A DNA stretch of 24,000 bases, from contig CAYFFS010000002.1 of the NCBI GenBank assembly GCA_964342765.1, positions 39,125 through 63,124 of the forward strand, written 5' to 3'. Numbering within the stretch: the first letter of the stretch is position 1; each line of letters begins with the position of its first letter. Positions 10,357 through 23,997 of the stretch are shown piece after piece. Origin of the DNA: an uncultured Nitrososphaerales archaeon (GTDB lineage: Archaea > Thermoproteota > Nitrososphaeria > Conexivisphaerales > Conexivisphaeraceae). The position numbers and the translations under genes are program-made. The notes beneath the pieces were generated by a model. It saw only the letters and a list, made by a program, of their open reading frames with translations, did no database searches and was not told where the DNA came from.

Positions 10357-11226
10357 TTAAAATTGCGTCTGCCCAGCGGGTTCCCTGAGCACCTTGACCT
10401 TGCGCGCGGCCTCCTCGACCTCCAGGGGGGTGAACCAGGGCTGCTTGTCCCTCATCTTAAGAGTCGCGGCAGCCGAGGCCCTGGCCAGGGACTCCTCTAT
10501 GCTCATGCCCTCGGAGCACATGTAGTTGCACAGGGCGGCGGTGAACACGTCCCCCAGGCCTATGGGCTCCCCGTCCAAGCCCTGTATGGGATGGCCCACG
10601 TAGAGGTGGCCGCCGAGCGCCGCGTAAAATGGGTCGCCCGAGTCAGTCACGATGAGGTCGAGCCGGTAGCGCTCGGAGCACTCAGCTATTGATTCCCCGC
10701 GGCATTCAGGCGGGAACTCGTACTTCTCGCCCCTCAGTATGACGCCGCTTCCTCTCAACCTAGCCATGATTTCCCTTACCCTGTCGGCGGAGTTCACGAC
10801 CCTTCCGCCGTCCGCCAGCGCCCTCGCGAAGCCCTGGACGTCAACGATCGTCGTCCCCCTGGACGCCGCCCGCTCCACGAGCTCAAGCGAAATCTCGCCC
10901 AGGGTTCCGGAAATAACGTATGGCCCGCCGCAATCGGCCGGAAGCTCTGGCTCCAGCTCCGGGCTCTCCAAGGCCTTGAGAGTTCTATCCCGGCCGTCGA
11001 CGTCTATCGAGAAAATGGCCTCGCGCCCCTTGACGGCCCTGACCTCTATTCCTGGGAGCCTCCTCAGGCGTCCCGCCGCCTTTCCTTCGACGGTCAAAAT
11101 TACCGCCTCCGCTCCCAGGAGGTGAAGCGCAATTCCGGCGAAGAAAGCCGGCCCTCCGATCCTCTCCGATCCGAGGACGAAGTCCCTCGTCGAGGTGGCT
11201 ACAAGAGTTATGGGCCTTTTCTGCAC
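10357..11226 (-). CDS. PfkB/ribokinase-family carbohydrate or nucleoside kinase
   Basis: 289 aa with a GTG start. The N-terminal GGPAFFAGIAL and the C-terminal anion-hole motif PIGLGDVFTAAL are typical of PfkB kinases. The substrate cannot be inferred. Confidence 0.65.
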   Translation of the reverse strand: MQKRPITLVATSTRDFVLGSERIGGPAFFAGIALHLLGAEAVILTVEGKAAGRLRRLPGIEVRAVKGREAIFSIDVDGRDRTLKALESPELEPELPADCGGPYVISGTLGEISLELVERAASRGTTIVDVQGFARALADGGRVVNSADRVREIMARLRGSGVILRGEKYEFPPECRGESIAECSERYRLDLIVTDSGDPFYAALGGHLYVGHPIQGLDGEPIGLGDVFTAALCNYMCSEGMSIEESLARASAAATLKMRDKQPWFTPLEVEEAARKVKVLREPAGQTQF

Positions 11227-11369: not shown

Positions 11370-12260
11370 ATGGCGGCTCTCGTAGTGCCTTCTTATATAA
11401 TATCTATATCGATCTATGGCCTCCTCTTCACGAGCATCTACCTGTTGCTGGCGACGGGGCTGACGCTGATCTTCGGCACCCTTAAGCTCGTCAACTTCGC
11501 CCATGGGGATCTGATGGTGCTGGGGGCATTCATCGCCTTCCTGTTCGTGACGATGCTGGGCTGGAGCCCTTACATGGCAATAGTGCCGGCGGTGTTCGTC
11601 ATAGTCGGAATGGGCGTGCTGATCTATAGGTTCGTCCTGAGGCCCGCGGTCAAGGTGGGCCCGGTGAACCAGATACTGTTGACGATCGGCGTCTCGTACG
11701 TCTTGGAGAACGGGCTGGCGTACTACTTCCTACCGGTCTACCGCACCGGCGTGGAGATACCCTCCCCCCTAAGGGGAAGGGGAATTTTGTTGCCCGGGAA
11801 CGTCCTCCTGACCTACGACGACCTGACGATAATACTTACCTCCTGGGTTATAATGCTGGCGCTGTATTACTGGCTGTACAAGACCAACCAAGGCATCGCG
11901 ATAAGGGCCCTGAGCCAGAACCCAATCGGGGCAGATATATCGGGGATAAACGTGGGGACTTTGGGCTACGTCACGTTCATAGTGGGCAGCGCGCTTGCGG
12001 CGATAGCCGGGGCCCTCTACGGAATAGCGTTCACGTTCGATCCGTTCACCGGCATAATCCTCACGCTCGACGCGTTCGCGGTGATGATACTTGGGGGCGT
12101 CGGGAGCGTGCCCGGCACGATCGTGGGCAGCATAGTGATAGGGTTCGCCACCAGCTACGCGAGCTACTACATGGGACAGACGTGGGGTGAGGCGATAGCG
12201 TTCATAATACTGGCGATAATATTGCTCGTCAGGCCCTCAGGGATCTTCAGGGGTGGTTGA
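11370..12260 (+). CDS. livH: Branched-chain amino acid (LIV/HAAT family) ABC transporter permease
   Basis: LivH-type N-terminus (LLATGLTLIFGTLKLVNFAHGDLMVLGAF) and the conserved C-terminal GGVGSVPGTIVGS. Confidence 0.85.
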   Translation: MAALVVPSYIISISIYGLLFTSIYLLLATGLTLIFGTLKLVNFAHGDLMVLGAFIAFLFVTMLGWSPYMAIVPAVFVIVGMGVLIYRFVLRPAVKVGPVNQILLTIGVSYVLENGLAYYFLPVYRTGVEIPSPLRGRGILLPGNVLLTYDDLTIILTSWVIMLALYYWLYKTNQGIAIRALSQNPIGADISGINVGTLGYVTFIVGSALAAIAGALYGIAFTFDPFTGIILTLDAFAVMILGGVGSVPGTIVGSIVIGFATSYASYYMGQTWGEAIAFIILAIILLVRPSGIFRGG

Positions 12261-13242
12261 GTTGAAGTGGGGCCTGGGAACGCTCGCGCTTCGCGCGATA
12301 GCGGTGGCCGCGGCGCTGGCGATCACGGCCGCGGTCTCCTCTTTCATGGGATCATATCCTACCCTCGTCGCCATAACGATAATGGTCTTCTTCGTGTACT
12401 CGATTTCCTGGTCCCTCCTGGCCAACACTGGGATGGTCTCGCTGGGCCAGGCCCTGTTCTTCGCGCTGGGCGCCTACGCGTACGGGATATTCATCACGCG
12501 TTACGGCTGGAACCCAATATTAGCGCTCTTCGTTGGTCCAGTGATGGGCGCGCTGGCGGGCCTAGTCGTCGGGGCGATATCCTCGAGGCTCAGGGACTGG
12601 TACGTCGGGATATTCACGTTCGCCCTGACGCCGGCCGGATACGCGCTTGCCGTCTCCAGCCAGCTTTCGCCGTGGACGGAGGGCGCGATAGGCCTGGCCA
12701 CGCCTCCCTTCCCCCTTCCCACCGAGTACTGGCTGCCCCTGGCCACTGCGCTGGCGTTCGCTGTGTACATGGTCGCGACGCTGATCAAGAGGAGCAGGAT
12801 GGGCTACGCCATGTCCGCCATAAACGACGACGAGGTCGCGGCGAGGACCGTCGGCATAAACTCTCTCCTCTACAAGACCCTGATCTTCGGGATAGCGGGA
12901 TACCTGGGGGCGCTCGCGGGGGCAATGTTCGTCGGGCTCTACACGAGTTACGTGGCCCCGGACTACTTCGGCTACCCTGACCTGAGCTACAGCGTGTGGC
13001 CCATCTTCTACTCCATGATAGGCGGGTTCGGGTCGCCCGAGGGCGTCCTAGTGGGAACTATACTCCTAGATCCTATAGAGACCGCCATAAGGTCCTGGCT
13101 GAGCGGCATCTCCGTCGTCGGAGGGAACCTCGCGCTGGTCATCTTCGGCCTCCTGCTGATCCTGGTGCTCCTCGAGGCGCCAAAGGGTATATATGGTTCG
13201 CTTGAGCGCCGCCTCAGCAGGAGGCCTCGCCGGAGGGCGTGA
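12253..13242 (+). CDS. livM: Branched-chain amino acid (HAAT family) ABC transporter permease
   Basis: LivM-type motifs (GMVSLGQALFFALGAY, AINDDEVAARTVGIN). The GTG at 12253 overlaps the end of livH by 8 nt. The TTG at 12262 is an alternative start. Confidence 0.85.
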   Translation: MVELKWGLGTLALRAIAVAAALAITAAVSSFMGSYPTLVAITIMVFFVYSISWSLLANTGMVSLGQALFFALGAYAYGIFITRYGWNPILALFVGPVMGALAGLVVGAISSRLRDWYVGIFTFALTPAGYALAVSSQLSPWTEGAIGLATPPFPLPTEYWLPLATALAFAVYMVATLIKRSRMGYAMSAINDDEVAARTVGINSLLYKTLIFGIAGYLGALAGAMFVGLYTSYVAPDYFGYPDLSYSVWPIFYSMIGGFGSPEGVLVGTILLDPIETAIRSWLSGISVVGGNLALVIFGLLLILVLLEAPKGIYGSLERRLSRRPRRRA

Positions 13243-13976
13243 GGATGGGGCTTCTGGACGTCTCCGGTGTTGTTAAGAGGTTCGGCGGTCTCACGGCGCT
13301 GAACGGCGTGGACATCTCGGTGCAGGGCGGCGAGCTACTGGGGATCATCGGGCCCAACGGGGCGGGTAAGACGACGCTAGTCAACGTCGTCATGGGCGTC
13401 TACTACCCGGACTCGGGGAGGATAACCTTCGATGGCCACGACATAACCAGGATGCCTCCACACAGGAGGGCCACCCTTGGCATATCTAGGACTTATCAGG
13501 TCCCCCGGCCCTTCAACGGGATGAAGGTGATAGACAACGTCGCGGTCGCCGCCATGTACGGATCGAAGAGGCTCTCTGTCAGGGAGGCCAGGGAGGTGGC
13601 GTCGGAGCTCCTTGAGAAGGTGCGCCTCTCCGAGAGGGCTGAGGATTACCCGGAGTCCCTGAGCGTCGTCGAGCTAAGGAAGCTCGAGCTGGCCAGGGCG
13701 CTCGCCCAGGGAGCTAAGCTCGTGTTCCTGGACGAGGTGAGCGCGGGGCTCGTTGGTGAGGACCTTAGGGAGGTGCTCTCCGTCGTGAGCGGGCTGCACG
13801 AGGGCGGGATGACGATCGTGATGATAGAGCACGTCATGAAGGTGATATTCAACCTGGCCGAGAGGATAGTCGTCATGATGAACGGGCAGAAGTTGGCGGA
13901 GGGGAAGCCCTCCGAGATAGCGTCGGACGCCAGGGTCGTGGAGTCCTACCTGGGAAGGAGGTGGTCCGAGATATGA
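13239..13976 (+). CDS. livG: HAAT-family ABC transporter ATP-binding protein (LivG type)
   Basis: Walker A GPNGAGKTT, LivG-type signature LSVVELRKLELARAL, Walker B LVFLDEVSAG. The likely start is ATG 13245, 7 nt after GGAGGG. The first GTG at 13239 overlaps the livM stop. Confidence 0.85.
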   Translation: MRMGLLDVSGVVKRFGGLTALNGVDISVQGGELLGIIGPNGAGKTTLVNVVMGVYYPDSGRITFDGHDITRMPPHRRATLGISRTYQVPRPFNGMKVIDNVAVAAMYGSKRLSVREAREVASELLEKVRLSERAEDYPESLSVVELRKLELARALAQGAKLVFLDEVSAGLVGEDLREVLSVVSGLHEGGMTIVMIEHVMKVIFNLAERIVVMMNGQKLAEGKPSEIASDARVVESYLGRRWSEI

Positions 13977-14680
13977 GCGACACACTCTCCGTCAGCGGCC
14001 TGGTGAGCGGGTACTACAAGATAAAGGTGCTGAACGAGGTTAGCCTGCGGGTTGGGAAGGGGGAGCTCGTCGGGATCATCGGGCCCAACGGGGCGGGTAA
14101 GACGACCACCCTTCGCACAATAGCCGGTGTGGTGCGCCCATGGTCGGGGAGCGTCCTGCTCGACGGCGTGAACGTGGCCGGTCTCCCCCCTCACAGGATA
14201 GCGAGGATGGGCCTGGGCTACGTGCCGGACAGCAGGGAGCTCTTCCCGAACCTGACGCTCGAGGAGCACCTGAGGCTGGCGCACTCGAGGCTCGGGTCGA
14301 AGGAGGACTTCGGGTCCGCGGTGGATCGCGTCATGGCGCTCTTCCCGCCCCTCAAGGGGAGGATGTCACAGAGGGTCGGCACGATGAGCGGAGGGGAGCA
14401 GCAGATGGTGGCCATAGCGAGGGCGCTGATATCGAGCCCGAAGCTGCTGATGCTGGACGAGCCCTCGACCGGCGTGGCGCCGCGCATCGTGGATAACATC
14501 TACGACGCGCTCAAGTCGCTCAAGGGATCCATGAGCATACTGCTCGTGGAGCAGAACGTCCAGCTGGTCTTCGAGGTGGCGGACCGCGTTTACCTGATGG
14601 ACAGGGGCTCCATAGTGAAGGAGGGCACTCCAGAGGAGCTCGTGAAGGACGAGCTCGTGAGGAGGACTTACCTGGCGTGA
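13973..14680 (+). CDS. livF: HAAT-family ABC transporter ATP-binding protein (LivF type)
   Basis: Walker A GPNGAGKTT, signature MSGGEQQMVAIARAL, Walker B LLMLDEPSTG. The ATG at 13973 overlaps the livG TGA (ATGA) and is preceded by GGAGGTG at 13957-13963. The track start at GTG 13961 is less likely. Confidence 0.85.
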   Translation: MSDTLSVSGLVSGYYKIKVLNEVSLRVGKGELVGIIGPNGAGKTTTLRTIAGVVRPWSGSVLLDGVNVAGLPPHRIARMGLGYVPDSRELFPNLTLEEHLRLAHSRLGSKEDFGSAVDRVMALFPPLKGRMSQRVGTMSGGEQQMVAIARALISSPKLLMLDEPSTGVAPRIVDNIYDALKSLKGSMSILLVEQNVQLVFEVADRVYLMDRGSIVKEGTPEELVKDELVRRTYLA

Positions 14681-17107: not shown

Positions 17108-17158
17108 TTTTCGCCGCATGCGGCGAGGGCCGCCAAGCGAGTCGAAATCGCATAACGC

Positions 17159-17165
17159 GTATATT
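17159..17165 (+). promoter_or_regulatory. TATA-like box of the MacB-type ABC module
   Basis: GTATATT is centred 25 nt upstream of the in-frame GTG 17187. Confidence 0.45.
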
Positions 17166-17186
17166 GAGGCGCCCGCGCGCCGCCAC

Positions 17187-17906
17187 GTGCAGGCTCCCTC
17201 CGAGGAGTTCGCGATATATCTGGAGGAGGTGACCAAGGTCTACAGGGGGGCGGTCCCCACGGTTGCCCTGAACAGGGTCACGCTCGGCGTGAGGCGCGGC
17301 GAGTTCGTGTCGATCGTGGGGCCCTCCGGATCCGGCAAGTCGACGCTCCTGCACGTGATGGGGACCTTGGACAGGCCCACGAGCGGCAGGGTCTACATAG
17401 CGGGGCGCGAGGTCAGCGGCCTGGGGGACGCGGAGCTATCGAGGATAAGGAACCGCTACATAGGGTTCGTCTTCCAGGCCTTCAACCTGATAAACCGCAT
17501 GAGCGTCCTGGAGAACGTCGAGCTGCCCCTCATCGCGAGGGGGATGCGCGCCCAGGAAAGGAGGAGGCGCGCGATGGAGGCGCTGAGGCTCCTGGGGGTG
17601 GACCATCTGTGGGCCAAGAGCCCCAGGTTCCTGAGCGGGGGCGAACAGCAGAGGGTCGCCATAGCGAGGGCCCTCGCCCAGGATCCGGAGTTCATACTCG
17701 CGGACGAGCCGACGGGGAACCTTGACTCCAAGAACGCGGAGGTGGTAATGCGCGCCCTCATGGACGTCAACAGGAGGGCCGGCAAGACGGTGATAATGGT
17801 GACCCACAACATGGAGCTCGCCAACATGACCGACAAGATTTACAGGATAAGGGACGGCAGGATAGAGGGCGTCGAGATCCCGAGGAAGGGGGCGGCTGGA
17901 GAATGA
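17187..17906 (+). CDS. ABC transporter ATP-binding protein, MacB/LolD/FtsE type
   Basis: Walker A GPSGSGKST, Q-loop FVFQAFNL, signature LSGGEQQRVAIARAL, Walker B ILADEPTGNLD. The track start ATG 17118 would put the TATATT box (17159-17165) inside the gene. The in-frame GTG at 17187 lies 25 nt downstream of that box and gives a typical N-terminus (..AIYLEEVTKVYRG). Confidence 0.85.
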   Translation: MQAPSEEFAIYLEEVTKVYRGAVPTVALNRVTLGVRRGEFVSIVGPSGSGKSTLLHVMGTLDRPTSGRVYIAGREVSGLGDAELSRIRNRYIGFVFQAFNLINRMSVLENVELPLIARGMRAQERRRRAMEALRLLGVDHLWAKSPRFLSGGEQQRVAIARALAQDPEFILADEPTGNLDSKNAEVVMRALMDVNRRAGKTVIMVTHNMELANMTDKIYRIRDGRIEGVEIPRKGAAGE

Positions 17907-19549
17907 GGCTTGGGCGCAACCTAGCCCTGGCGCTCGCCGCGGCCATCGTCCTGGCCGCGGCCATCCCGGCATCCGCTCAGGTCCTCACCACGGTGCCCCC
18001 CGTCACGATCTCCTACTACGGGTGGGGCACCCCCTCCTCGCCGATGTATCCGTCGTCCGGCGCGGGCCAGGTCCCCTTCACAGTGGAGGTGGTGACGGCC
18101 CCCACCGGAAGCGGAGCCCCTACGGTCGTGGACTACGCCACGCTTAACCTGACGGGCACGCCCCTGACAAACTCCACGGGGGGTTACATCGTGACCGCGG
18201 CGCCCACGCAGATGTCGTCCAACGTCTACCTGCTGACGTTCTACATACAGATACCGCCGGGCGCTCCCCCGGGCCCTTACAACGCGACCCTGAACGTATA
18301 CTACAGCCAGGCCACGACCACGACGTCCTCGAGCGGCGCCACGACAGTGGTGAACTACTACGTGTACTCGGATAACCTGACGGTGACCGTTTACCAGAGG
18401 CCCTCGGCGTCCGTCGAGGTCCGGGCGCCGGACATCTACGCCGGGGGGATCGGGCAGCTCGTCGTCCTCGTCAACGACACGGGCCCGTTCGCGCTGGACG
18501 ACCTCACCGTGTCCGTGCAGTCCGAGCTACCATTGGTCGGAGGCAACGCCAGCTCCCTGGGTGAGCTGGCTCCCGGATCCTCCGCGGCGTTCAGGTTCTA
18601 CCTGAGCGCGCCGCAGTCGCAGCCCCCCGGCTACTACCCTGTGCAGGTGATAGTAGGCTACTGGAGCGGAGGGGCACAGTACTCCTCCACGTACTACGCG
18701 CGCGTCGACGTCATGTCCCAGGTGGGATCCCTCTACGCCTACGCAGTGCCCTCCACGATACCATATCAGAGGAACGACAGCGTTACCATATACGTGGTGA
18801 ACGGGCTGAGCGGCGCCGTGGGCGACGTGGTCGCGTCCCTGGAGCCCTCGCAGGAGTTCTTCATAGCCCAGGGCTACAGGCAATTCGACCTGGGATCCCT
18901 GCCCCCTGGGTCCTCCTCCGCCATATCCCTGAACGTGATACCCCTGGCATCCTCGCCGGGGCCTTCGAACATCGAGCTCCAGGTGTCATACGTTGACCCT
19001 GAGGGGGTGCAGCGGCAGGCCGTGCTCACGGTCCCCATCTACCTGGAGGGGCTGGCGGACGTGTCCTTCAGCCAGGTCTCTGCCTCGCCGTCCCAGTATG
19101 CGAACTCCGCCGCTCAGCCTTCAGACGTCCTGTTCAACGGATCCATGGCAACCGTGTCCGGGATCCTGCTCAACACGGGCACCGACGAGGCCTACTATGG
19201 ATACGTGTACGTTAACGGCTCGATAGTGGGGAACGCCCAGCCCGAGTACGTCGGCAACCTGCCCACGAATTCGCCCACCCCCTTCAGCGTCTCCTTCTAC
19301 GTGCCGCCCGACGTGGCGCCCGGATTCTACACGGTGCATCTCGCGTTCTCGTACCAGGACGAGCTGGGCAACGCGCACGCCGTCTCCTATCAGCTCTTGG
19401 TCCAGGTCGTGCCGGCCCCGTCGGCCCAGCGCGCGGAGTACGGGCACGGATCCGCCGCGGCCTATGCCCTCACGGCTGTGGTAGTGGCGGTCGCGGTCGC
19501 GGTTTCCGTGGTCGCGGCGCGCCGCCGCAGGAGGGAGAGCCAGGCCTGA
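17903..19549 (+). CDS. Secreted, C-terminally membrane-anchored protein with four tandem beta-sandwich (CARDB / COG1361 S-layer-domain-like) repeats
   Basis: Signal peptide MRLGRNLALALAAAIVLAAAIPASA|Q. Four ~110-120 aa modules each end in a (P)PG-aromatic ... Y motif (PPGPYNATLNVYY, PPGYYPVQVIVGY, SPGPSNIELQVSY, APGFYTVHLAFSY). Nine N-x-S/T sequons. C-terminal TM helix ALTAVVVAVAVAVSVVAA followed by RRRRRESQA. The ATG overlaps the ATPase stop (ATGA). Confidence 0.8.
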   Translation: MRLGRNLALALAAAIVLAAAIPASAQVLTTVPPVTISYYGWGTPSSPMYPSSGAGQVPFTVEVVTAPTGSGAPTVVDYATLNLTGTPLTNSTGGYIVTAAPTQMSSNVYLLTFYIQIPPGAPPGPYNATLNVYYSQATTTTSSSGATTVVNYYVYSDNLTVTVYQRPSASVEVRAPDIYAGGIGQLVVLVNDTGPFALDDLTVSVQSELPLVGGNASSLGELAPGSSAAFRFYLSAPQSQPPGYYPVQVIVGYWSGGAQYSSTYYARVDVMSQVGSLYAYAVPSTIPYQRNDSVTIYVVNGLSGAVGDVVASLEPSQEFFIAQGYRQFDLGSLPPGSSSAISLNVIPLASSPGPSNIELQVSYVDPEGVQRQAVLTVPIYLEGLADVSFSQVSASPSQYANSAAQPSDVLFNGSMATVSGILLNTGTDEAYYGYVYVNGSIVGNAQPEYVGNLPTNSPTPFSVSFYVPPDVAPGFYTVHLAFSYQDELGNAHAVSYQLLVQVVPAPSAQRAEYGHGSAAAYALTAVVVAVAVAVSVVAARRRRRESQA

Positions 19550-20799
19550 ACGCGCTGGAGGCCCTCGCGTTCGCACTCAAGGCGCTCAGCGACAGGAGGA
19601 TAAGGTCCGCCCTCACGATAGTCGGCATAATGATAGGGCCGGCCGCGATAATAGGGATAACCTCGCTCACGGGCGGCTACAGCGCCTCCATACAATCCCA
19701 GCTGCTCAAGCTGGGCACGAACACAATACTTGTCACGCCCTCGAACGGCTATTCGCTCACGCAGCGCGACGTCCAGGTGATATCCTCCCTGCCTGAGGTG
19801 GCCGGGGCCTATCCGTTCTACGACGTGCCCGGCTACATAAACACCCCCGCTGGGAGGGAGGAGGTGAGCGTAATAGCGATAGACCTGCAGGGGCTCGTGA
19901 GGACCCTTCCGGGGCTCCAGCTGCAATCGGGATCCCTTCCCCCGCCCACGGAGGCGGCCGAGGCTGTGCTCGGCTACTACGTCGCGAACCCCCAGAACTC
20001 CCAGATGCCCAAGTACTCGGTCGGCAGCGTCGTCACAGTCAACGTCCTCGCGCCGCAGGGAGCCAGCACCAGGAGCTTCCTGGTCTCGGGCGTCTTCCAG
20101 GAGGTCGGCCCCACGTTCATAGCCGACCTCGACCAGTCGATATTCGTGCCGTTGGCCGCCGGGAGGGAGCTCACGGGCAGCCCTTACTACTCCGGGATCC
20201 TGGTCTACGTGTCGAGCTCCAGCGCGGTCAACGCCACGGAGACCAGGATAAAGGACATCTACGGCAACGACGTGAACGTCCTCTCCACCCAGATGGGCAT
20301 AAGCATAGCCAACACGATAATAGGCTACCTCAACATGCTCCTCGTTTCGGCGGCGGGCGTCTCGCTGCTAGTCGCGTTCGTCGGCGTGACCACCACCATG
20401 TACACGAGCGTCGTGGAGAGGACCAGGGAGATCGGGGTGCTGAAGGCCCTGGGCTTCACGAACAGGGACGTGATGTACCTGTTCCTCGCGGAGTCCGCGC
20501 TCATGGGGCTGCTCGGGGGCCTCGCCGGCCTGGCTCTCGGGGTCGGGGTCGCGTACGCGCTCACGGACCTGATGCCCTACATGCTGGGGGGCGGGGATCC
20601 GCGCGGGGCCGCCCCATCGGCGCACTCCGGCTCGGCGCCGGCCGCCGGGATTTCGCTGGGGCACGTGGCGCCGGCCTTCTCCCCCTTCGCGATGGCGCTC
20701 ACCCTAGCCCTCTCAGTCGCGATAGGGCTCGTGGCCGGCCTCGTGCCAGCGTACAGGGCCGCTAGGATGGATCCCGTGACAGCCCTCAGGTACGAGTGA
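19546..20799 (+). CDS. MacB/FtsX-type ABC transporter permease (apparent non-canonical CTG start)
   Basis: The track ORF starts at ATG 19630, in the middle of TM1. The frame is open upstream and encodes the family-typical N-terminus LNALEALAFALKALSDRRIRSALTIVGIMIGPAAIIG. A large extracytoplasmic domain follows, then an FtsX domain (REIGVLKALGFTNRDVMYLFLAESALMGLLGGLAG...LVPAYRAARMDPVTALRYE). There is no ATG/GTG/TTG in frame between the preceding in-frame stop (which lies upstream of 19297) and 19630. CTG 19546 overlaps the upstream TGA. Confidence 0.7.
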   Translation: MNALEALAFALKALSDRRIRSALTIVGIMIGPAAIIGITSLTGGYSASIQSQLLKLGTNTILVTPSNGYSLTQRDVQVISSLPEVAGAYPFYDVPGYINTPAGREEVSVIAIDLQGLVRTLPGLQLQSGSLPPPTEAAEAVLGYYVANPQNSQMPKYSVGSVVTVNVLAPQGASTRSFLVSGVFQEVGPTFIADLDQSIFVPLAAGRELTGSPYYSGILVYVSSSSAVNATETRIKDIYGNDVNVLSTQMGISIANTIIGYLNMLLVSAAGVSLLVAFVGVTTTMYTSVVERTREIGVLKALGFTNRDVMYLFLAESALMGLLGGLAGLALGVGVAYALTDLMPYMLGGGDPRGAAPSAHSGSAPAAGISLGHVAPAFSPFAMALTLALSVAIGLVAGLVPAYRAARMDPVTALRYE

Positions 20800-20923: not shown

Positions 20924-21205
20924 GTGGTCGGTTCGCCGGCCAAGTCCTACGAGATAGTCGTGATAGGGGACAGGTGTAAGGAGTGTTCTCTCTGCATAAA
21001 CGTGTGCCCGAAGGACGTCCTCGCCAGGGGGCAGAGGATGAACAGGAAGGGCTACAGGGCGACCGTCCCCGTCAAGCCAGAGGCCTGCGTGGGCTGCCGC
21101 GTCTGCGAGTGGGCGTGCCCCGACTTCGCGCTCTTCGTGAGGCCCTCCGAGAGGCCCGTGGGCCGCGTCGTGTGGGCTAACGAGGAGGAGGTGATAGCGC
21201 ATTGA
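20924..21205 (+). CDS. 2-oxoacid:ferredoxin oxidoreductase delta subunit (2x[4Fe-4S] ferredoxin-like)
   Basis: Two cluster motifs, CKECSLCINVCP and CVGCRVCEWACP, in a 93-aa protein directly upstream of the alpha subunit. Confidence 0.8.
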   Translation: MVGSPAKSYEIVVIGDRCKECSLCINVCPKDVLARGQRMNRKGYRATVPVKPEACVGCRVCEWACPDFALFVRPSERPVGRVVWANEEEVIAH

Positions 21206-22371
21206 GCTCCCAGAGGGCCGAGTTCCTCAACTCGAACCAGGCCGTGGCCGAGGGGGCGATGGCCGCCGGCCTGGGAGTGTACGTGGGCTACCCGATAACC
21301 CCGTCGAGCGACATGTTCGAGTACCTGTCCGAGGAGCTTCCGAAGAGGGGCGGCGTGGTCTTCCAGGCCGAGGACGAGATAGCCTCGATAAACGCGCTCG
21401 TTGGGGCCTCCCTTGCGGGCGCAAAGGCGATGACCGCGACGAGCGGCCCAGGGTTCAGCCTCATGATGGAGGGGATAGGCTTCGCTGCTATGGTGGAGGC
21501 CCCCCTGGTCGTGGTGGACGTGATGAGGGCGGGGCCCAGCACCGGAATAGCCACCCAGATAGGGCAGGGCGACATATACCAGGCCAGATGGGGCTCCCAC
21601 GGCGTCTACAACCTGGTCGCGTACGCCCCCGCCAGCGCCCAGGAGGCCTACGAGTACGCGATAAGGGCGTTCAACGCCGCCTACACCGTGAGGACTCCCG
21701 TGATACTCATGACCGATGCCATACTTGCGCACACAAGGGAGAGGGTGGTCCTAAGGGATCCGAACGAGATAGGCATCGTGGGGCGCAAGGTCCCGAAGGT
21801 CCCGCCGGATCAGTACAGGCCCTATCGCCCGGATCCTGAGGACCTGGTCCCGCCGATGGCGTTCTACGGCGAGGGCTACCATCCCATAGCTGAGAGCCTC
21901 TCGCACGATGAGAAGGGCTACTACAAGACCGACGACGAGACCTACCGCGCGCTCGTCTCCCGCCTCGTCAGGAAGGTCGAGGTGAACAAGGGGAAGCTGG
22001 TCGCCTCCAAGTCCTACCACGTCGAGGACGCTGAGATATTGTTCGTCGCCATAGGATCCCTCGCCAGGAACCTGCTGGCCGTCGTGAGGGACCTGAGGTC
22101 CCGCGGCGTGAAGGCCGGGATGTTCCGCCCGATATCGCTCTGGCCGTTCGACGATGAGGCGTTCGTCGCGGCGGCCGCCCGCGCCAAGAGCATAGTGACC
22201 GTGGAGCTCAACCAGGGCCAGCTCTATCAGATAATAAAGGGGATACTGTGGGACAACAGAAAGAGAATAGGGGATCCGGCGATCTACAACCTTGATATAC
22301 CGGTGCCGACGCTCCCGACGCCGGACGAGATATTGGGCGAGATAGAGTCGAGGGGGTGGAAGCTATGGTGA
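21202..22371 (+). CDS. 2-oxoacid:ferredoxin oxidoreductase alpha subunit
   Basis: LNSNQAVAEGAMAAGLGVYVGYPITPSSD..., SINALVGASLAGAKAMTATSGPGFSLM. The TTG start overlaps the delta TGA (TTGA), with GGAGGAGGTGA ending 7 nt upstream. Confidence 0.85.
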   Translation: MSSQRAEFLNSNQAVAEGAMAAGLGVYVGYPITPSSDMFEYLSEELPKRGGVVFQAEDEIASINALVGASLAGAKAMTATSGPGFSLMMEGIGFAAMVEAPLVVVDVMRAGPSTGIATQIGQGDIYQARWGSHGVYNLVAYAPASAQEAYEYAIRAFNAAYTVRTPVILMTDAILAHTRERVVLRDPNEIGIVGRKVPKVPPDQYRPYRPDPEDLVPPMAFYGEGYHPIAESLSHDEKGYYKTDDETYRALVSRLVRKVEVNKGKLVASKSYHVEDAEILFVAIGSLARNLLAVVRDLRSRGVKAGMFRPISLWPFDDEAFVAAAARAKSIVTVELNQGQLYQIIKGILWDNRKRIGDPAIYNLDIPVPTLPTPDEILGEIESRGWKLW

Positions 22372-23231
22372 TGCTTCAGGAGAGGCCCTCGCACCCGCTG
22401 GACGCCTACATGAGGACGGACAGGCTGCCCCACATATGGTGTCCCGGGTGCGGGATCGGGATAGCGCTCCAGCAGTTCCTCTGGGCCGTGAAGGAGCTCC
22501 ACGAGGAGGGGAAGCTCGACCCTAACAAGATAGTCTTCGTGACCGGCATAGGCTGCACCGGTCGCGCCTCAGGCTTCGTGAAGTTCGACTCCGCGCACAC
22601 GCCGCACGGCCGCGCCATACCGTTCGCCGTAGGGGTTAAGCTGGCAAATCCGTCCCTCATACCGGTCGTCTTCAGCGGGGACGGCGACATAGCGTCCATA
22701 GGCGGCAACCACATGATCCACGCGGCTAGGAGGAACTTCGACATGCTCGTTATAATGGTGAACAACATGACCTACGGCCTCACGGGCGGCCAGCTGGCCC
22801 CGACGACGCCGCACGGGATCTACTCCACGACGACCCCGAAGGGGAACCCGGAGGCCCCGATAGACGCCACGAAGGTCGTCTACTCGCTCTCGCCCAACTT
22901 CGTCGCCAGGATGAGCATAACCCACCCCAACCTGATACGCGAGACGGTGAAGAAGGCGCTGCTCATGAAGGGGTTCAGGTGGATAGAGGTGCTCTCCACG
23001 TGCCCGGAGATATTCGGGAGGCACATCAACATGAGGGACCCGTACGAGCTGTACTCGCGCCTGAAGCAGGTCGTGAGGTTCAAGAAGGTGTCGAACGCTG
23101 ACGAGATAAAGTACGACTGGAACAGCGAGATAACCTGCGGCGTCTTCCTGGAGAAGAACAACCCAAGCTACATGGAGAACTACCTGTCCATGTACGGGCT
23201 CAAGGAGAAGCTGGAGGTGTTGGCGCCATGA
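22365..23231 (+). CDS. 2-oxoacid:ferredoxin oxidoreductase beta subunit (TPP-binding)
   Basis: WCPGCGIGIA, TGIGCTGR, FSGDGDIASIGGNHMIHAARRN, NNMTYGLTGGQ. The ATG at 22365 follows GGGGGTGG. GTG 22356 and ATG 22371 are in-frame alternatives. Confidence 0.85.
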   Translation: MVMLQERPSHPLDAYMRTDRLPHIWCPGCGIGIALQQFLWAVKELHEEGKLDPNKIVFVTGIGCTGRASGFVKFDSAHTPHGRAIPFAVGVKLANPSLIPVVFSGDGDIASIGGNHMIHAARRNFDMLVIMVNNMTYGLTGGQLAPTTPHGIYSTTTPKGNPEAPIDATKVVYSLSPNFVARMSITHPNLIRETVKKALLMKGFRWIEVLSTCPEIFGRHINMRDPYELYSRLKQVVRFKKVSNADEIKYDWNSEITCGVFLEKNNPSYMENYLSMYGLKEKLEVLAP

Positions 23232-23761
23232 GCTCCAAGCACGAGATAGTGATCGCCGGAAGGGGAGGCCAGGGAATACTCCTGGCCGGCTACATACTCG
23301 GCAAGGCACTAGTCGACGAGGGGTACTACGTCGTCAACTCGGAGGAATACAGCGCGGAGACCAGGGGAGGCGACTCAAAGGCGGAGCTCATAGTGGCAAA
23401 GGACGAGGAGCCGGACCTCATGACGGTGCAGAGGGCGGACATCGCCGTGTTCATGTACACGGATCAGCTCTCGAAGTACTACAGGCTCGTTGGGAAGGGG
23501 GCCACCCTCGTCCTGGACTCCACCTTCATAAAGGAGGCGCCGAAGGACGCCGGGAAGGTCCTCATGGCCCCCTTCACGGAGGTCGCGGAGAAGCGCGTCG
23601 GCAACATAAGGACGGCTAACATGGTAATGCTTGGCTACTTCGCGTCGAAGGTAGGGCTCGTCGGGATCGACACGCTGGTCAGCGCCATGCGCTCGGTCAC
23701 GAACCCCAATTGGGTCGAGGTCAACGAGAGGGCCCTGAGGACCGGCTACGAGCTCCAGTGA
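23228..23761 (+). CDS. 2-oxoacid:ferredoxin oxidoreductase gamma subunit
   Basis: EIVIAGRGGQGILLAGYILGKA...EEYSAETRGGDSKAELIV. The ATG overlaps the beta TGA (ATGA), with GGAGGTG 8 nt upstream. Confidence 0.85.
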   Translation: MSSKHEIVIAGRGGQGILLAGYILGKALVDEGYYVVNSEEYSAETRGGDSKAELIVAKDEEPDLMTVQRADIAVFMYTDQLSKYYRLVGKGATLVLDSTFIKEAPKDAGKVLMAPFTEVAEKRVGNIRTANMVMLGYFASKVGLVGIDTLVSAMRSVTNPNWVEVNERALRTGYELQ

Positions 23762-23918: not shown

Positions 23919-23997
23919 TGGTAGCGGGGCCAGGATTCGAACCTGGGATCTCGGGGTTATGAGCCCCGCGGGATAGACCTAGCTTCCCCACCCCGCT
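23919..23997 (-). tRNA. Initiator tRNA-Met (anticodon CAT), CCA encoded
   Basis: The reverse complement is AGCGGGG-TG-GGGA...TCCC-G-CGGGG-CTCATAA-CCCCG-AGATC-CCAGG-TTCGAAT-CCTGG-CCCCGCT-A-CCA. The A1:U72 pair and three consecutive G:C pairs closing the anticodon stem are archaeal initiator hallmarks. Confidence 0.9.

Follow-up and report, generated by a model that had tools for sequence, protein, structure and literature searches.

The window analysed here, by which we mean the whole 24,000-nucleotide stretch of DNA, comes from a relative of Conexivisphaera, a non-ammonia-oxidising member of the Nitrososphaeria. Its G+C content is ~65% and its closest proteins are those of Conexivisphaera calida and related metagenome-assembled genomes (69–70% identity). 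Between positions 17118 and 20799 of the forward strand, three open reading frames (ORFs) follow one another head to tail and encode an ATP-binding cassette (ABC) ATPase, a secreted protein of 548 residues, which we call the rod, and a membrane permease. In ATGA at 17903–17906, the start codon (ATG) of the middle gene shares nucleotides with the TGA stop of the ATPase gene; likewise, the CTG at which the permease frame is taken to start overlaps the TGA stop of the middle gene (CTGA, 19546–19549). Both overlaps are present in the sequence exactly as an earlier note on this DNA had given them. Bacterial MacB-type ABC systems are motors that work outside the membrane by way of an adaptor, a lipoprotein carrier or a hydrolase activator; archaea have neither an outer membrane nor murein. 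The system described here is of this known MacB type; its partner appears to belong to a new class, and the combination occurs widely among archaea. All features given below lie on the forward (+) strand unless marked otherwise.

Anatomy of the three genes

The ATPase gene most likely starts at GTG 17187, as judged by alignment with four orthologues of 236–238 residues, giving a protein of 239 residues (17187–17906), rather than at ATG 17118, where the longest ORF (262 residues) begins. A TATA-like box, cgtatattg (17158–17166), can be read ~25 nt 5′ of this GTG, and the C. calida orthologue has gtataaaat at an equal distance 5′ of its own GTG start; the box is the probable promoter of a leaderless operon transcript. 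Since the orthologues and the box both indicate GTG 17187, the ORF from ATG 17118 probably exceeds the gene by 23 codons, and of the ATPase coordinates proposed earlier the overlapping stop stands whilst the start most likely does not. The translation matches Pfam ABC_tran (E = 2e-33), and its Walker A motif, Q-loop, LSGGE signature, Walker B motif with glutamate and H-loop are all intact. The best NCBIfam models are DarD, LolD, FtsE and MacB, with scores below every equivalog cutoff, in agreement with the MacB/LolD/FtsE class to which the protein had been assigned from the letters; it is a partner ATPase of this class with intact catalytic motifs. Among solved structures, MJ0796 of Methanocaldococcus jannaschii is its nearest relative (3e-65), with Spr0694 and LolD next. 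MJ0796, the textbook model of an ABC ATPase (PDB 1F3O, 1L2T), is not known to have been studied other than as an isolated ATPase, outside its complex.

The rod (17903–19549) is a secreted and C-terminally anchored protein with four CARDB-like beta-sandwich modules. Its hydrophobic N-terminal segment (residues 3–32) indicates a signal peptide (residues 1–25, 17903–17977) with a predicted cleavage site at ASA|Q; signal peptides are also present in the orthologues, where a conserved W-G motif follows 10–15 residues further on. An AlphaFold2 model, made from a 14-sequence alignment (mean pLDDT 74.8), is an all-beta rod of four modules followed by a helix at residues 519–547. The model, together with conservation, defines the first module, D1 (residues 34–164, 18002–18394), as the tip furthest from the membrane, with residues W41, G42, P52, G53, F113, G124 and Y126 near-invariant in 39 orthologues. 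The variable middle is formed in the model by D2 (residues 169–271) and D3 (residues 277–382), which together occupy 18407–19048. Next comes the membrane-proximal D4 (residues 387–503, 19061–19411), placed by the model and by conservation; with 12 positions conserved at 90% or above in the same 39 orthologues, it is the most conserved module of all. Hydropathy and the AlphaFold2 helix locate the membrane helix to A518–A539, and this is followed by an RRRRR stop-transfer tail at residues 540–544 (helix and tail, 19454–19534). The helix and the basic tail are kept in all orthologues, whilst the sequence of the helix itself is not conserved.

Comparison of module profiles built from the 39 orthologues showed that all six pairs of modules are homologous (hhalign probability 88–99%, E = 3e-6 to 5e-18), the closest pair being D2 and D3 (99%, E = 5e-18). 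Because all four modules are homologous to one another, the description of the protein as a four-repeat one is correct, and each of the parts claimed for it from the sequence, that is, signal peptide, four modules, transmembrane helix and arginine tail, is in place. The absence of beta-sandwich repeats from a predicted structure was part of what the earlier note would have accepted as refuting its reading; the AlphaFold2 model has such repeats. The rod's best conserved modules are the two at its ends, D1 and D4, and it is in the middle that module number differs: orthologues of 620–690 residues have an extra module in the D2–D3 region, and the long forms have ~10 modules.

The assignment of these modules to a named family is less direct. 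In Pfam, the middle protein matches NPCBM_assoc (28.5 bits against a cutoff of 24.4, with no single stretch passing alone) and, weakly, TRAPPC13_C. The CARDB model (PF07705) gives no match to the window protein at E ≤ 0.1, whereas it matches 21 of 24 members of the rod family (best E = 9e-14). The window protein consists of tandem homologous E-set beta-sandwich modules, and NCBI annotates its orthologues as 'COG1361 S-layer family protein' or 'CARDB domain-containing protein'. In a Foldseek search of the PDB, the model matched generic tandem Ig-like proteins only (ciliary ASH-domain proteins, integrin alpha legs and complement MG domains), with the Haloferax volcanii S-layer protein (7ptp) at rank 30 among them. 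Pfam detects no HlyD, BSH or beta-barrel adaptor domain in the middle protein, which therefore lacks the hallmarks of a membrane-fusion protein. We also considered an archaeosortase/exosortase signal of the PGF-CTERM type at the C terminus and rejected it, as no NCBIfam sorting model matches and no conserved motif precedes the helix; the sole NCBIfam match on this helix is a weak one to CcmD.

Nine N-X-S/T sequons are found in the middle protein, compared with 3.7 ± 1.7 in shuffled sequences, of which 8 in 2000 reach nine. Rod sequons are two- to four-fold enriched in the Conexivisphaera-like clades, but the Caldarchaeales orthologues have 0–1 where ~4 are expected. Heavy N-glycosylation would thus be a trait of the lineage and not a property of the family, and the label 'glycoprotein' given to the rod is not one for the family as a whole. 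The mature form of this 548-residue protein also has neither lysine nor cysteine. Rods of the Conexivisphaera clade have 0–1 lysines, compared with 17–28 in the Caldarchaeales orthologues and a lysine content of 1–6% in the other proteins of the window. This composition may reflect how a protein exposed to a hot and acidic environment has adapted.

The permease, of 417 residues when read from the CTG (19546–20799), belongs to the MacB/FtsX (type VII ABC) superfamily, as had been proposed. Two Pfam domains score well above their cutoffs, FtsX (79.2 bits, cutoff 25.5, E = 3e-22) and MacB_PCD (78.4 bits, cutoff 27, E = 1e-21). There are four hydrophobic segments, at residues 19–43, 257–290, 309–340 and 374–405, with a domain of ~210 residues between the first two. 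The layout is thus a first transmembrane helix (TM1, residues 19–43), an extracytoplasmic MacB_PCD domain (~44–256) and an FtsX membrane domain (257–405), that is, four helices with a MacB-like insert between TM1 and TM2. Among solved structures its relatives are Spr0695 (5xu1), MacB, YtrF and LolC/E/F.

Conservation and reach of the gene linkage

As alignments of the middle protein were too divergent for a pattern search, the permease alignment was scanned against one genome per species, and the census is accordingly limited to close relatives of the permease. This gave 45 archaeal loci from Conexivisphaerales, other non-ammonia-oxidising Nitrososphaeria, Caldarchaeales, Pelearchaeum and Terraquivivens, as well as from cultured 'Thermoproteati' isolates, apparently Tardisphaera. 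ORF and HMM (hidden Markov model) calling showed all 41 loci whose upstream DNA is long enough (39 of them non-redundant) to have ATPase, rod and permease genes in this order on a single strand. Three further loci have rod and permease at the end of a contig, five were uninformative, and five weak bacterial hits have no rod gene. Each census locus has one permease gene, and in 34 of 39 loci the start of the middle gene overlaps the stop of the ATPase gene. The same order, ATPase, rod, permease, is seen around all four homologues whose context was inspected separately; one of these is only 23% identical, has five modules and lies among different flanking genes. The linkage of the rod to the ABC genes is therefore far beyond chance. 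Its absence from related genomes had been named beforehand as grounds for abandoning the reading; in each of the related genomes that were inspected, the rod gene proved to be linked to genes for the ATPase and the permease.

Two loci met during the census deserve mention for other reasons. In one from Nitrososphaerota (L039, 3248–5977), the rod gene is broken into three ORFs in succession, either because it is a pseudogene or through frameshift errors in a long-read assembly. The other is a contig of 2.5 kb labelled uncultured Elusimicrobia (CAZDUB010000031.1), which encodes the C terminus of an archaeal-type rod and a permease in a layout near-identical to that of the Caldarchaeales loci and is probably a mis-binned archaeal contig.

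The family reaches much further than the census. When searched exhaustively, the family profile matched 4352 representative clusters at E ≤ 1e-3, 176 of them at E ≤ 1e-30, with lengths of ~450–1500 residues; a word-index profile search found no further distant members. All members whose context was examined, from the 41 census loci and seven others in three archaeal classes, are linked to ABC genes. Two long members of 1245 and 1264 residues (~10 modules) lie between ATPase and permease, and beside a member of 539 residues the permease is convergent, on the opposite strand. Methanolobus has one ATPase–rod–permease trio and a second rod gene directly upstream of an ATPase–permease pair. In Methanolobus sp. 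WCC1 (L059, 1–10771), a dense array of MacB-type modules within 11 kb has four FtsX-type permease genes, two ATPases and two rod-family proteins; the array also contains two Yip1 genes and a secreted, anchored protein of 370 residues that does not match the rod profile. The suspicion that similar neighbourhoods occur in other archaea is thus borne out as far as the Methanococci and Methanosarcinia.

The Methanococci are represented by the MJ0796-orthologous locus of Methanocaldococcus sp. FS406-22 (L058, 1673–8233). Here a member of 507 residues (profile E = 6e-39) has the signal peptide, C-terminal helix and basic tail of the family. The cluster encodes, in this order, a SpoIIM-like protein, Yip1, the rod, a membrane protein of 170 residues, the ATPase, a membrane protein of 134 residues, a MacB_PCD/FtsX permease and a protein of 336 residues without a Pfam match. 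The small membrane proteins may be further subunits. The three-gene design is thus conserved from Nitrososphaeria and Caldarchaeales to Methanosarcinia, with an altered order in Methanococci.

No characterised member and no study of the trio was found in the searchable literature, which omits most subscription journals, so that comparative-genomics papers may already mention it. Within that scope, this agrees with the statement of the earlier note that it knew of none. In the searchable full text, COG1361 occurs only as a generic 'S-layer domain' label.

A proposed MacB-type machine with the rod as outer partner

The closest bacterial counterparts are found in Gram-positive organisms, where MacB systems are established that work with a hexameric adaptor such as YknX or Spr0693 (PMC8277102). 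For MacB itself, the mechanism is one of mechanotransmission, in which ATP-driven closure is relayed through stalk helices to the outer domain (PMC8277102). Like YknWXYZ of B. subtilis and Spr0693-0694-0695 of S. pneumoniae, the window trio has an ATPase of the LolD/MacB class that is encoded separately, a permease of four helices whose outer domain is that of MacB and, from the same operon, a third, membrane-anchored extracytoplasmic protein, in a host without an outer membrane. The best solved relative of the permease is Spr0695 (5xu1), and Spr0694 is among the best for the ATPase. An operon of a Firmicute of the Tepidanaerobacteraceae shows the correspondence particularly well: it encodes an ATPase 60% identical to MJ0796, a YknX-type membrane-fusion protein of 559 residues and a MacB_PCD/FtsX permease, so that the rod and the bacterial adaptor occupy equivalent positions. 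The two third proteins themselves are different. Unlike YknX and Spr0693, the rod is a tandem array of CARDB-like modules of variable number, with its anchor at the C terminus behind a cleaved signal peptide, and nothing suggests that it forms a hexameric channel. Most likely, it replaces the adaptor without being related to it.

Other well-known systems are more distant. The trio shares the type VII ABC architecture with MacAB-TolC, and ATP-driven motion of an outer domain that does its work outside the membrane is a likely common principle. It differs in that its ATPase is separate, where MacB has it fused to the permease, and in that there is here neither a MacA adaptor nor a TolC duct. With LolCDE and FtsEX, it has in common the permease superfamily and the class of ATPase, and both of these systems also work mechanically on an extracytoplasmic partner. 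Their own models score far too low, however: for the Lol family, lolCE gives 85.5 bits against a cutoff of 362, LolC 54 against 473 and LolE 37 against 439, and for the Fts family FtsE gives 206.8 bits against 264.85 and the FtsX models 23–28 against 225–255. In addition, LolCDE has two paralogous permeases where the trio has a single permease gene, and no LolA-like acceptor is found; in comparison with FtsEX, the outer domain of ~210 residues is of the MacB_PCD type and not the small FtsX type, and there is no hydrolase activator. The rod resembles other CARDB/COG1361 'S-layer domain' proteins in its tandem E-set beta-sandwiches with an N-x-G-x-x-x-A motif. It is set apart from them by its fixed layout, which runs from signal peptide through conserved tip, variable middle and conserved D4 to helix and basic tail, and by being tied, as a subfamily, to MacB-type ABC genes.

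Since the rod lies in the gene slot of the bacterial membrane-fusion protein, it is taken to be the fixed outer partner of the machine. Our preferred reading, to which we give a probability of about one half, is that the trio forms one type VII (MacB-type) ABC machine, with the rod as this partner, that expels a substrate outward. From the anatomy and the comparison with bacterial systems, we infer a physical complex, its stoichiometry, its direction of action, its substrate and its mechanism as follows. Coupled translation through the overlapping stop and start codons would yield the three proteins in fixed proportion. A cytoplasmic ATPase would be assembled with the four-helix permease, its MacB-like outer domain and the rod, exported by its signal peptide; the membrane helix of the rod would pack against the helices of the permease. 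The conserved D4 would then stand beside the outer domain of the permease, and the conserved tip D1 would reach into or through the surface layer. Binding and hydrolysis of ATP would move the outer domain, as shown for MacB, and this motion, together with or through the rod, would push the substrate, possibly a peptide or a lipophilic compound, outward from the outer face of the membrane.

Several observations weigh against this proposal. A rod of tandem beta-sandwiches forms no channel like that of the adaptor hexamers, so 'adaptor' may be an apt word for its position only. Its anchor is C-terminal behind a cleaved signal peptide, where that of an adaptor is N-terminal. In Methanocaldococcus, the order at the MJ0796 locus is rod, 170-residue protein, ATPase, 134-residue protein, permease; the rod lies two genes upstream of the ATPase, in the company of Yip1, SpoIIM-like and small membrane proteins, so that tight coupling does not hold everywhere. 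The search of solved structures with Foldseek returned generic tandem Ig-like proteins only. Finally, the permease of the window starts with CTG, which makes its expression here uncertain.

The rod might instead be the cargo. LolCDE pulls lipoproteins out of the membrane, and a Lol-like ABC module could similarly extract the C-terminal helix of the rod and release the protein or pass it to the surface layer. The permease does match LolC/E models and structures weakly, a helix and basic tail that are always kept while their sequence is not conserved would suit a generic handle, and NCBI labels the orthologues 'S-layer family protein'. We nevertheless think this unlikely. The overlapping codons imply about one transporter per rod, which would be wasteful for an enzyme and its substrate; there is no sign of a released form or of a processing motif, nor any match to a sorting-signal model; the best conservation is found in the membrane-proximal D4, as would fit a standing interface; and the bacterial protein in the same slot is a subunit, not a cargo. 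This last point also bears on the roles suggested in the earlier note, such as S-layer handling or adhesion control, which found no specific support: a YknX-type adaptor in the same slot suggests an adaptor-like partner of an expulsion machine, and for an S-layer role of the rod the name 'S-layer family protein' in databases is the sole basis.

A sensor or regulator comparable to FtsEX-EnvC/PcsB or BceAB-BceS is another explanation that we regard as improbable. ATP-driven motion would here switch the conformation of the rod, and nothing would be expelled; the switching would control an extracellular enzyme, adhesion or a signalling partner. The conserved D1 tip with its invariant W-G motif could be a binding site, and a range of four to ~10 modules is what would be expected if reach matters. 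There is, on the other hand, no conserved hydrolase, kinase or regulator gene beside the trio, the flanks being lineage-dependent, and the outer domain is of full MacB_PCD size, with FtsX equivalog scores far below their cutoffs. Least credible is chance co-transcription, in which the middle gene would encode an ordinary surface protein, S-layer protein or adhesin that has nothing to do with the efflux ABC pair on its transcript. Proteins with CARDB repeats are frequent at cell surfaces, and linkage to ABC genes was checked for only some of the 4352 representative clusters; yet every context examined is ABC-linked, in three archaeal classes and with differing flanks, and the gene lies between the two ABC genes with codon overlaps on both sides. 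Linkage kept over such distances strongly disfavours chance co-transcription.

Returning to the outer-partner reading, a broader proposal can be attached to it, which we advance only tentatively and consider doubtful as it stands. Archaea, apparently without membrane-fusion proteins at this position, may have evolved an unrelated replacement, the C-terminally anchored CARDB rod, which would join a MacB-type ABC module to form a machine bridging membrane and surface layer, its reach being fitted to the envelope by the number of modules (four to ~10). If this is true, the trio would represent a domain-wide and unstudied class of tripartite envelope machine with MJ0796 as its motor. Short of that, the analysis turns a vague 'S-layer family protein' beside an 'ABC transporter permease' into a testable hypothesis of a widespread archaeal envelope machine, and provides a biological context for MJ0796, which is among the most used model ABC ATPases.

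The permease start and the surroundings of the trio

In the public annotation, the permease begins at ATG 19630 and has 389 residues (L056, 4728–5897). The frame is open from ~19216 (stop at ~19213) and contains no ATG, GTG or TTG before ATG 19630. That ATG lies inside TM1, given that residue 21, in the numbering from 19546, is the first of the MacB_PCD match, and the 28 residues encoded 5′ of it align with the N termini of orthologues, including those that start with TTG. Four relatives have TTGA at the junction where the window has CTGA. At the other 41 loci, the permease starts at the overlap position with ATG, TTG or GTG in 29; in most of the remainder a canonical start lies 11 nt upstream, and in four the start follows the stop by 21–34 nt, so that only in the window is a canonical start lacking close by. 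In other respects the gene is intact, with 82% identity to that of C. calida over its full length. Judged by these alignments, CTG 19546 is the correct orthologous start position, as had been proposed from the letters. We consider the public call to be truncated, with the cytoplasmic N terminus and half of TM1 removed; the non-canonical start is the probable cause of this miscall, which would be a systematic one.

An assembly error at the CTG was rejected, since a second assembly (Logan DRR163693) also has CTGA; as that assembly may come from the same reads, only an error of assembly is excluded by it. The CTG could reflect CUG initiation or re-initiation, or lower expression of the permease in this lineage. 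Two adjacent arginine codons, AGG AGG, create a Shine–Dalgarno-like GGAGG (19530–19534) 12 nt 5′ of the permease start. In 16 of 42 loci a GGAGG lies within the final 29 nt of the middle gene, compared with 3.4% of control windows within those same genes, and it may function in initiation of the permease. The AGG AGG stretch may double as a membrane-topology signal and a ribosome-binding site. Fusion of rod and permease by a programmed frameshift would be topologically possible, with the RRRRR tail and the N terminus of the permease both cytoplasmic; it was rejected, as a slippery sequence is absent and the permease has a canonical start of its own at nearly all other loci.

The genes on either side of the trio in the window are housekeeping ones, encoding an M20 peptidase, a 2-oxoacid:ferredoxin oxidoreductase and a LIV-type ABC importer. 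They provide no clue to function, as the flanks are lineage-dependent and are not conserved with the trio. Further upstream, an ORF of 289 residues on the reverse strand (10357–11226, −) has no Pfam match at E ≤ 0.001; its neighbours are a glycine-transporter-family gene and the operon of the LIV-type importer (permeases 11370–13242, ATPases 13239–14680). Downstream of the trio, the four subunits (delta, alpha, beta and gamma) of the 2-oxoacid:ferredoxin oxidoreductase are encoded by an operon of overlapping genes (20924–23761), which adjoins the ABC trio in the Conexivisphaera clade only. This operon is followed by a tRNA-Met gene on the reverse strand (23919–23997, −).

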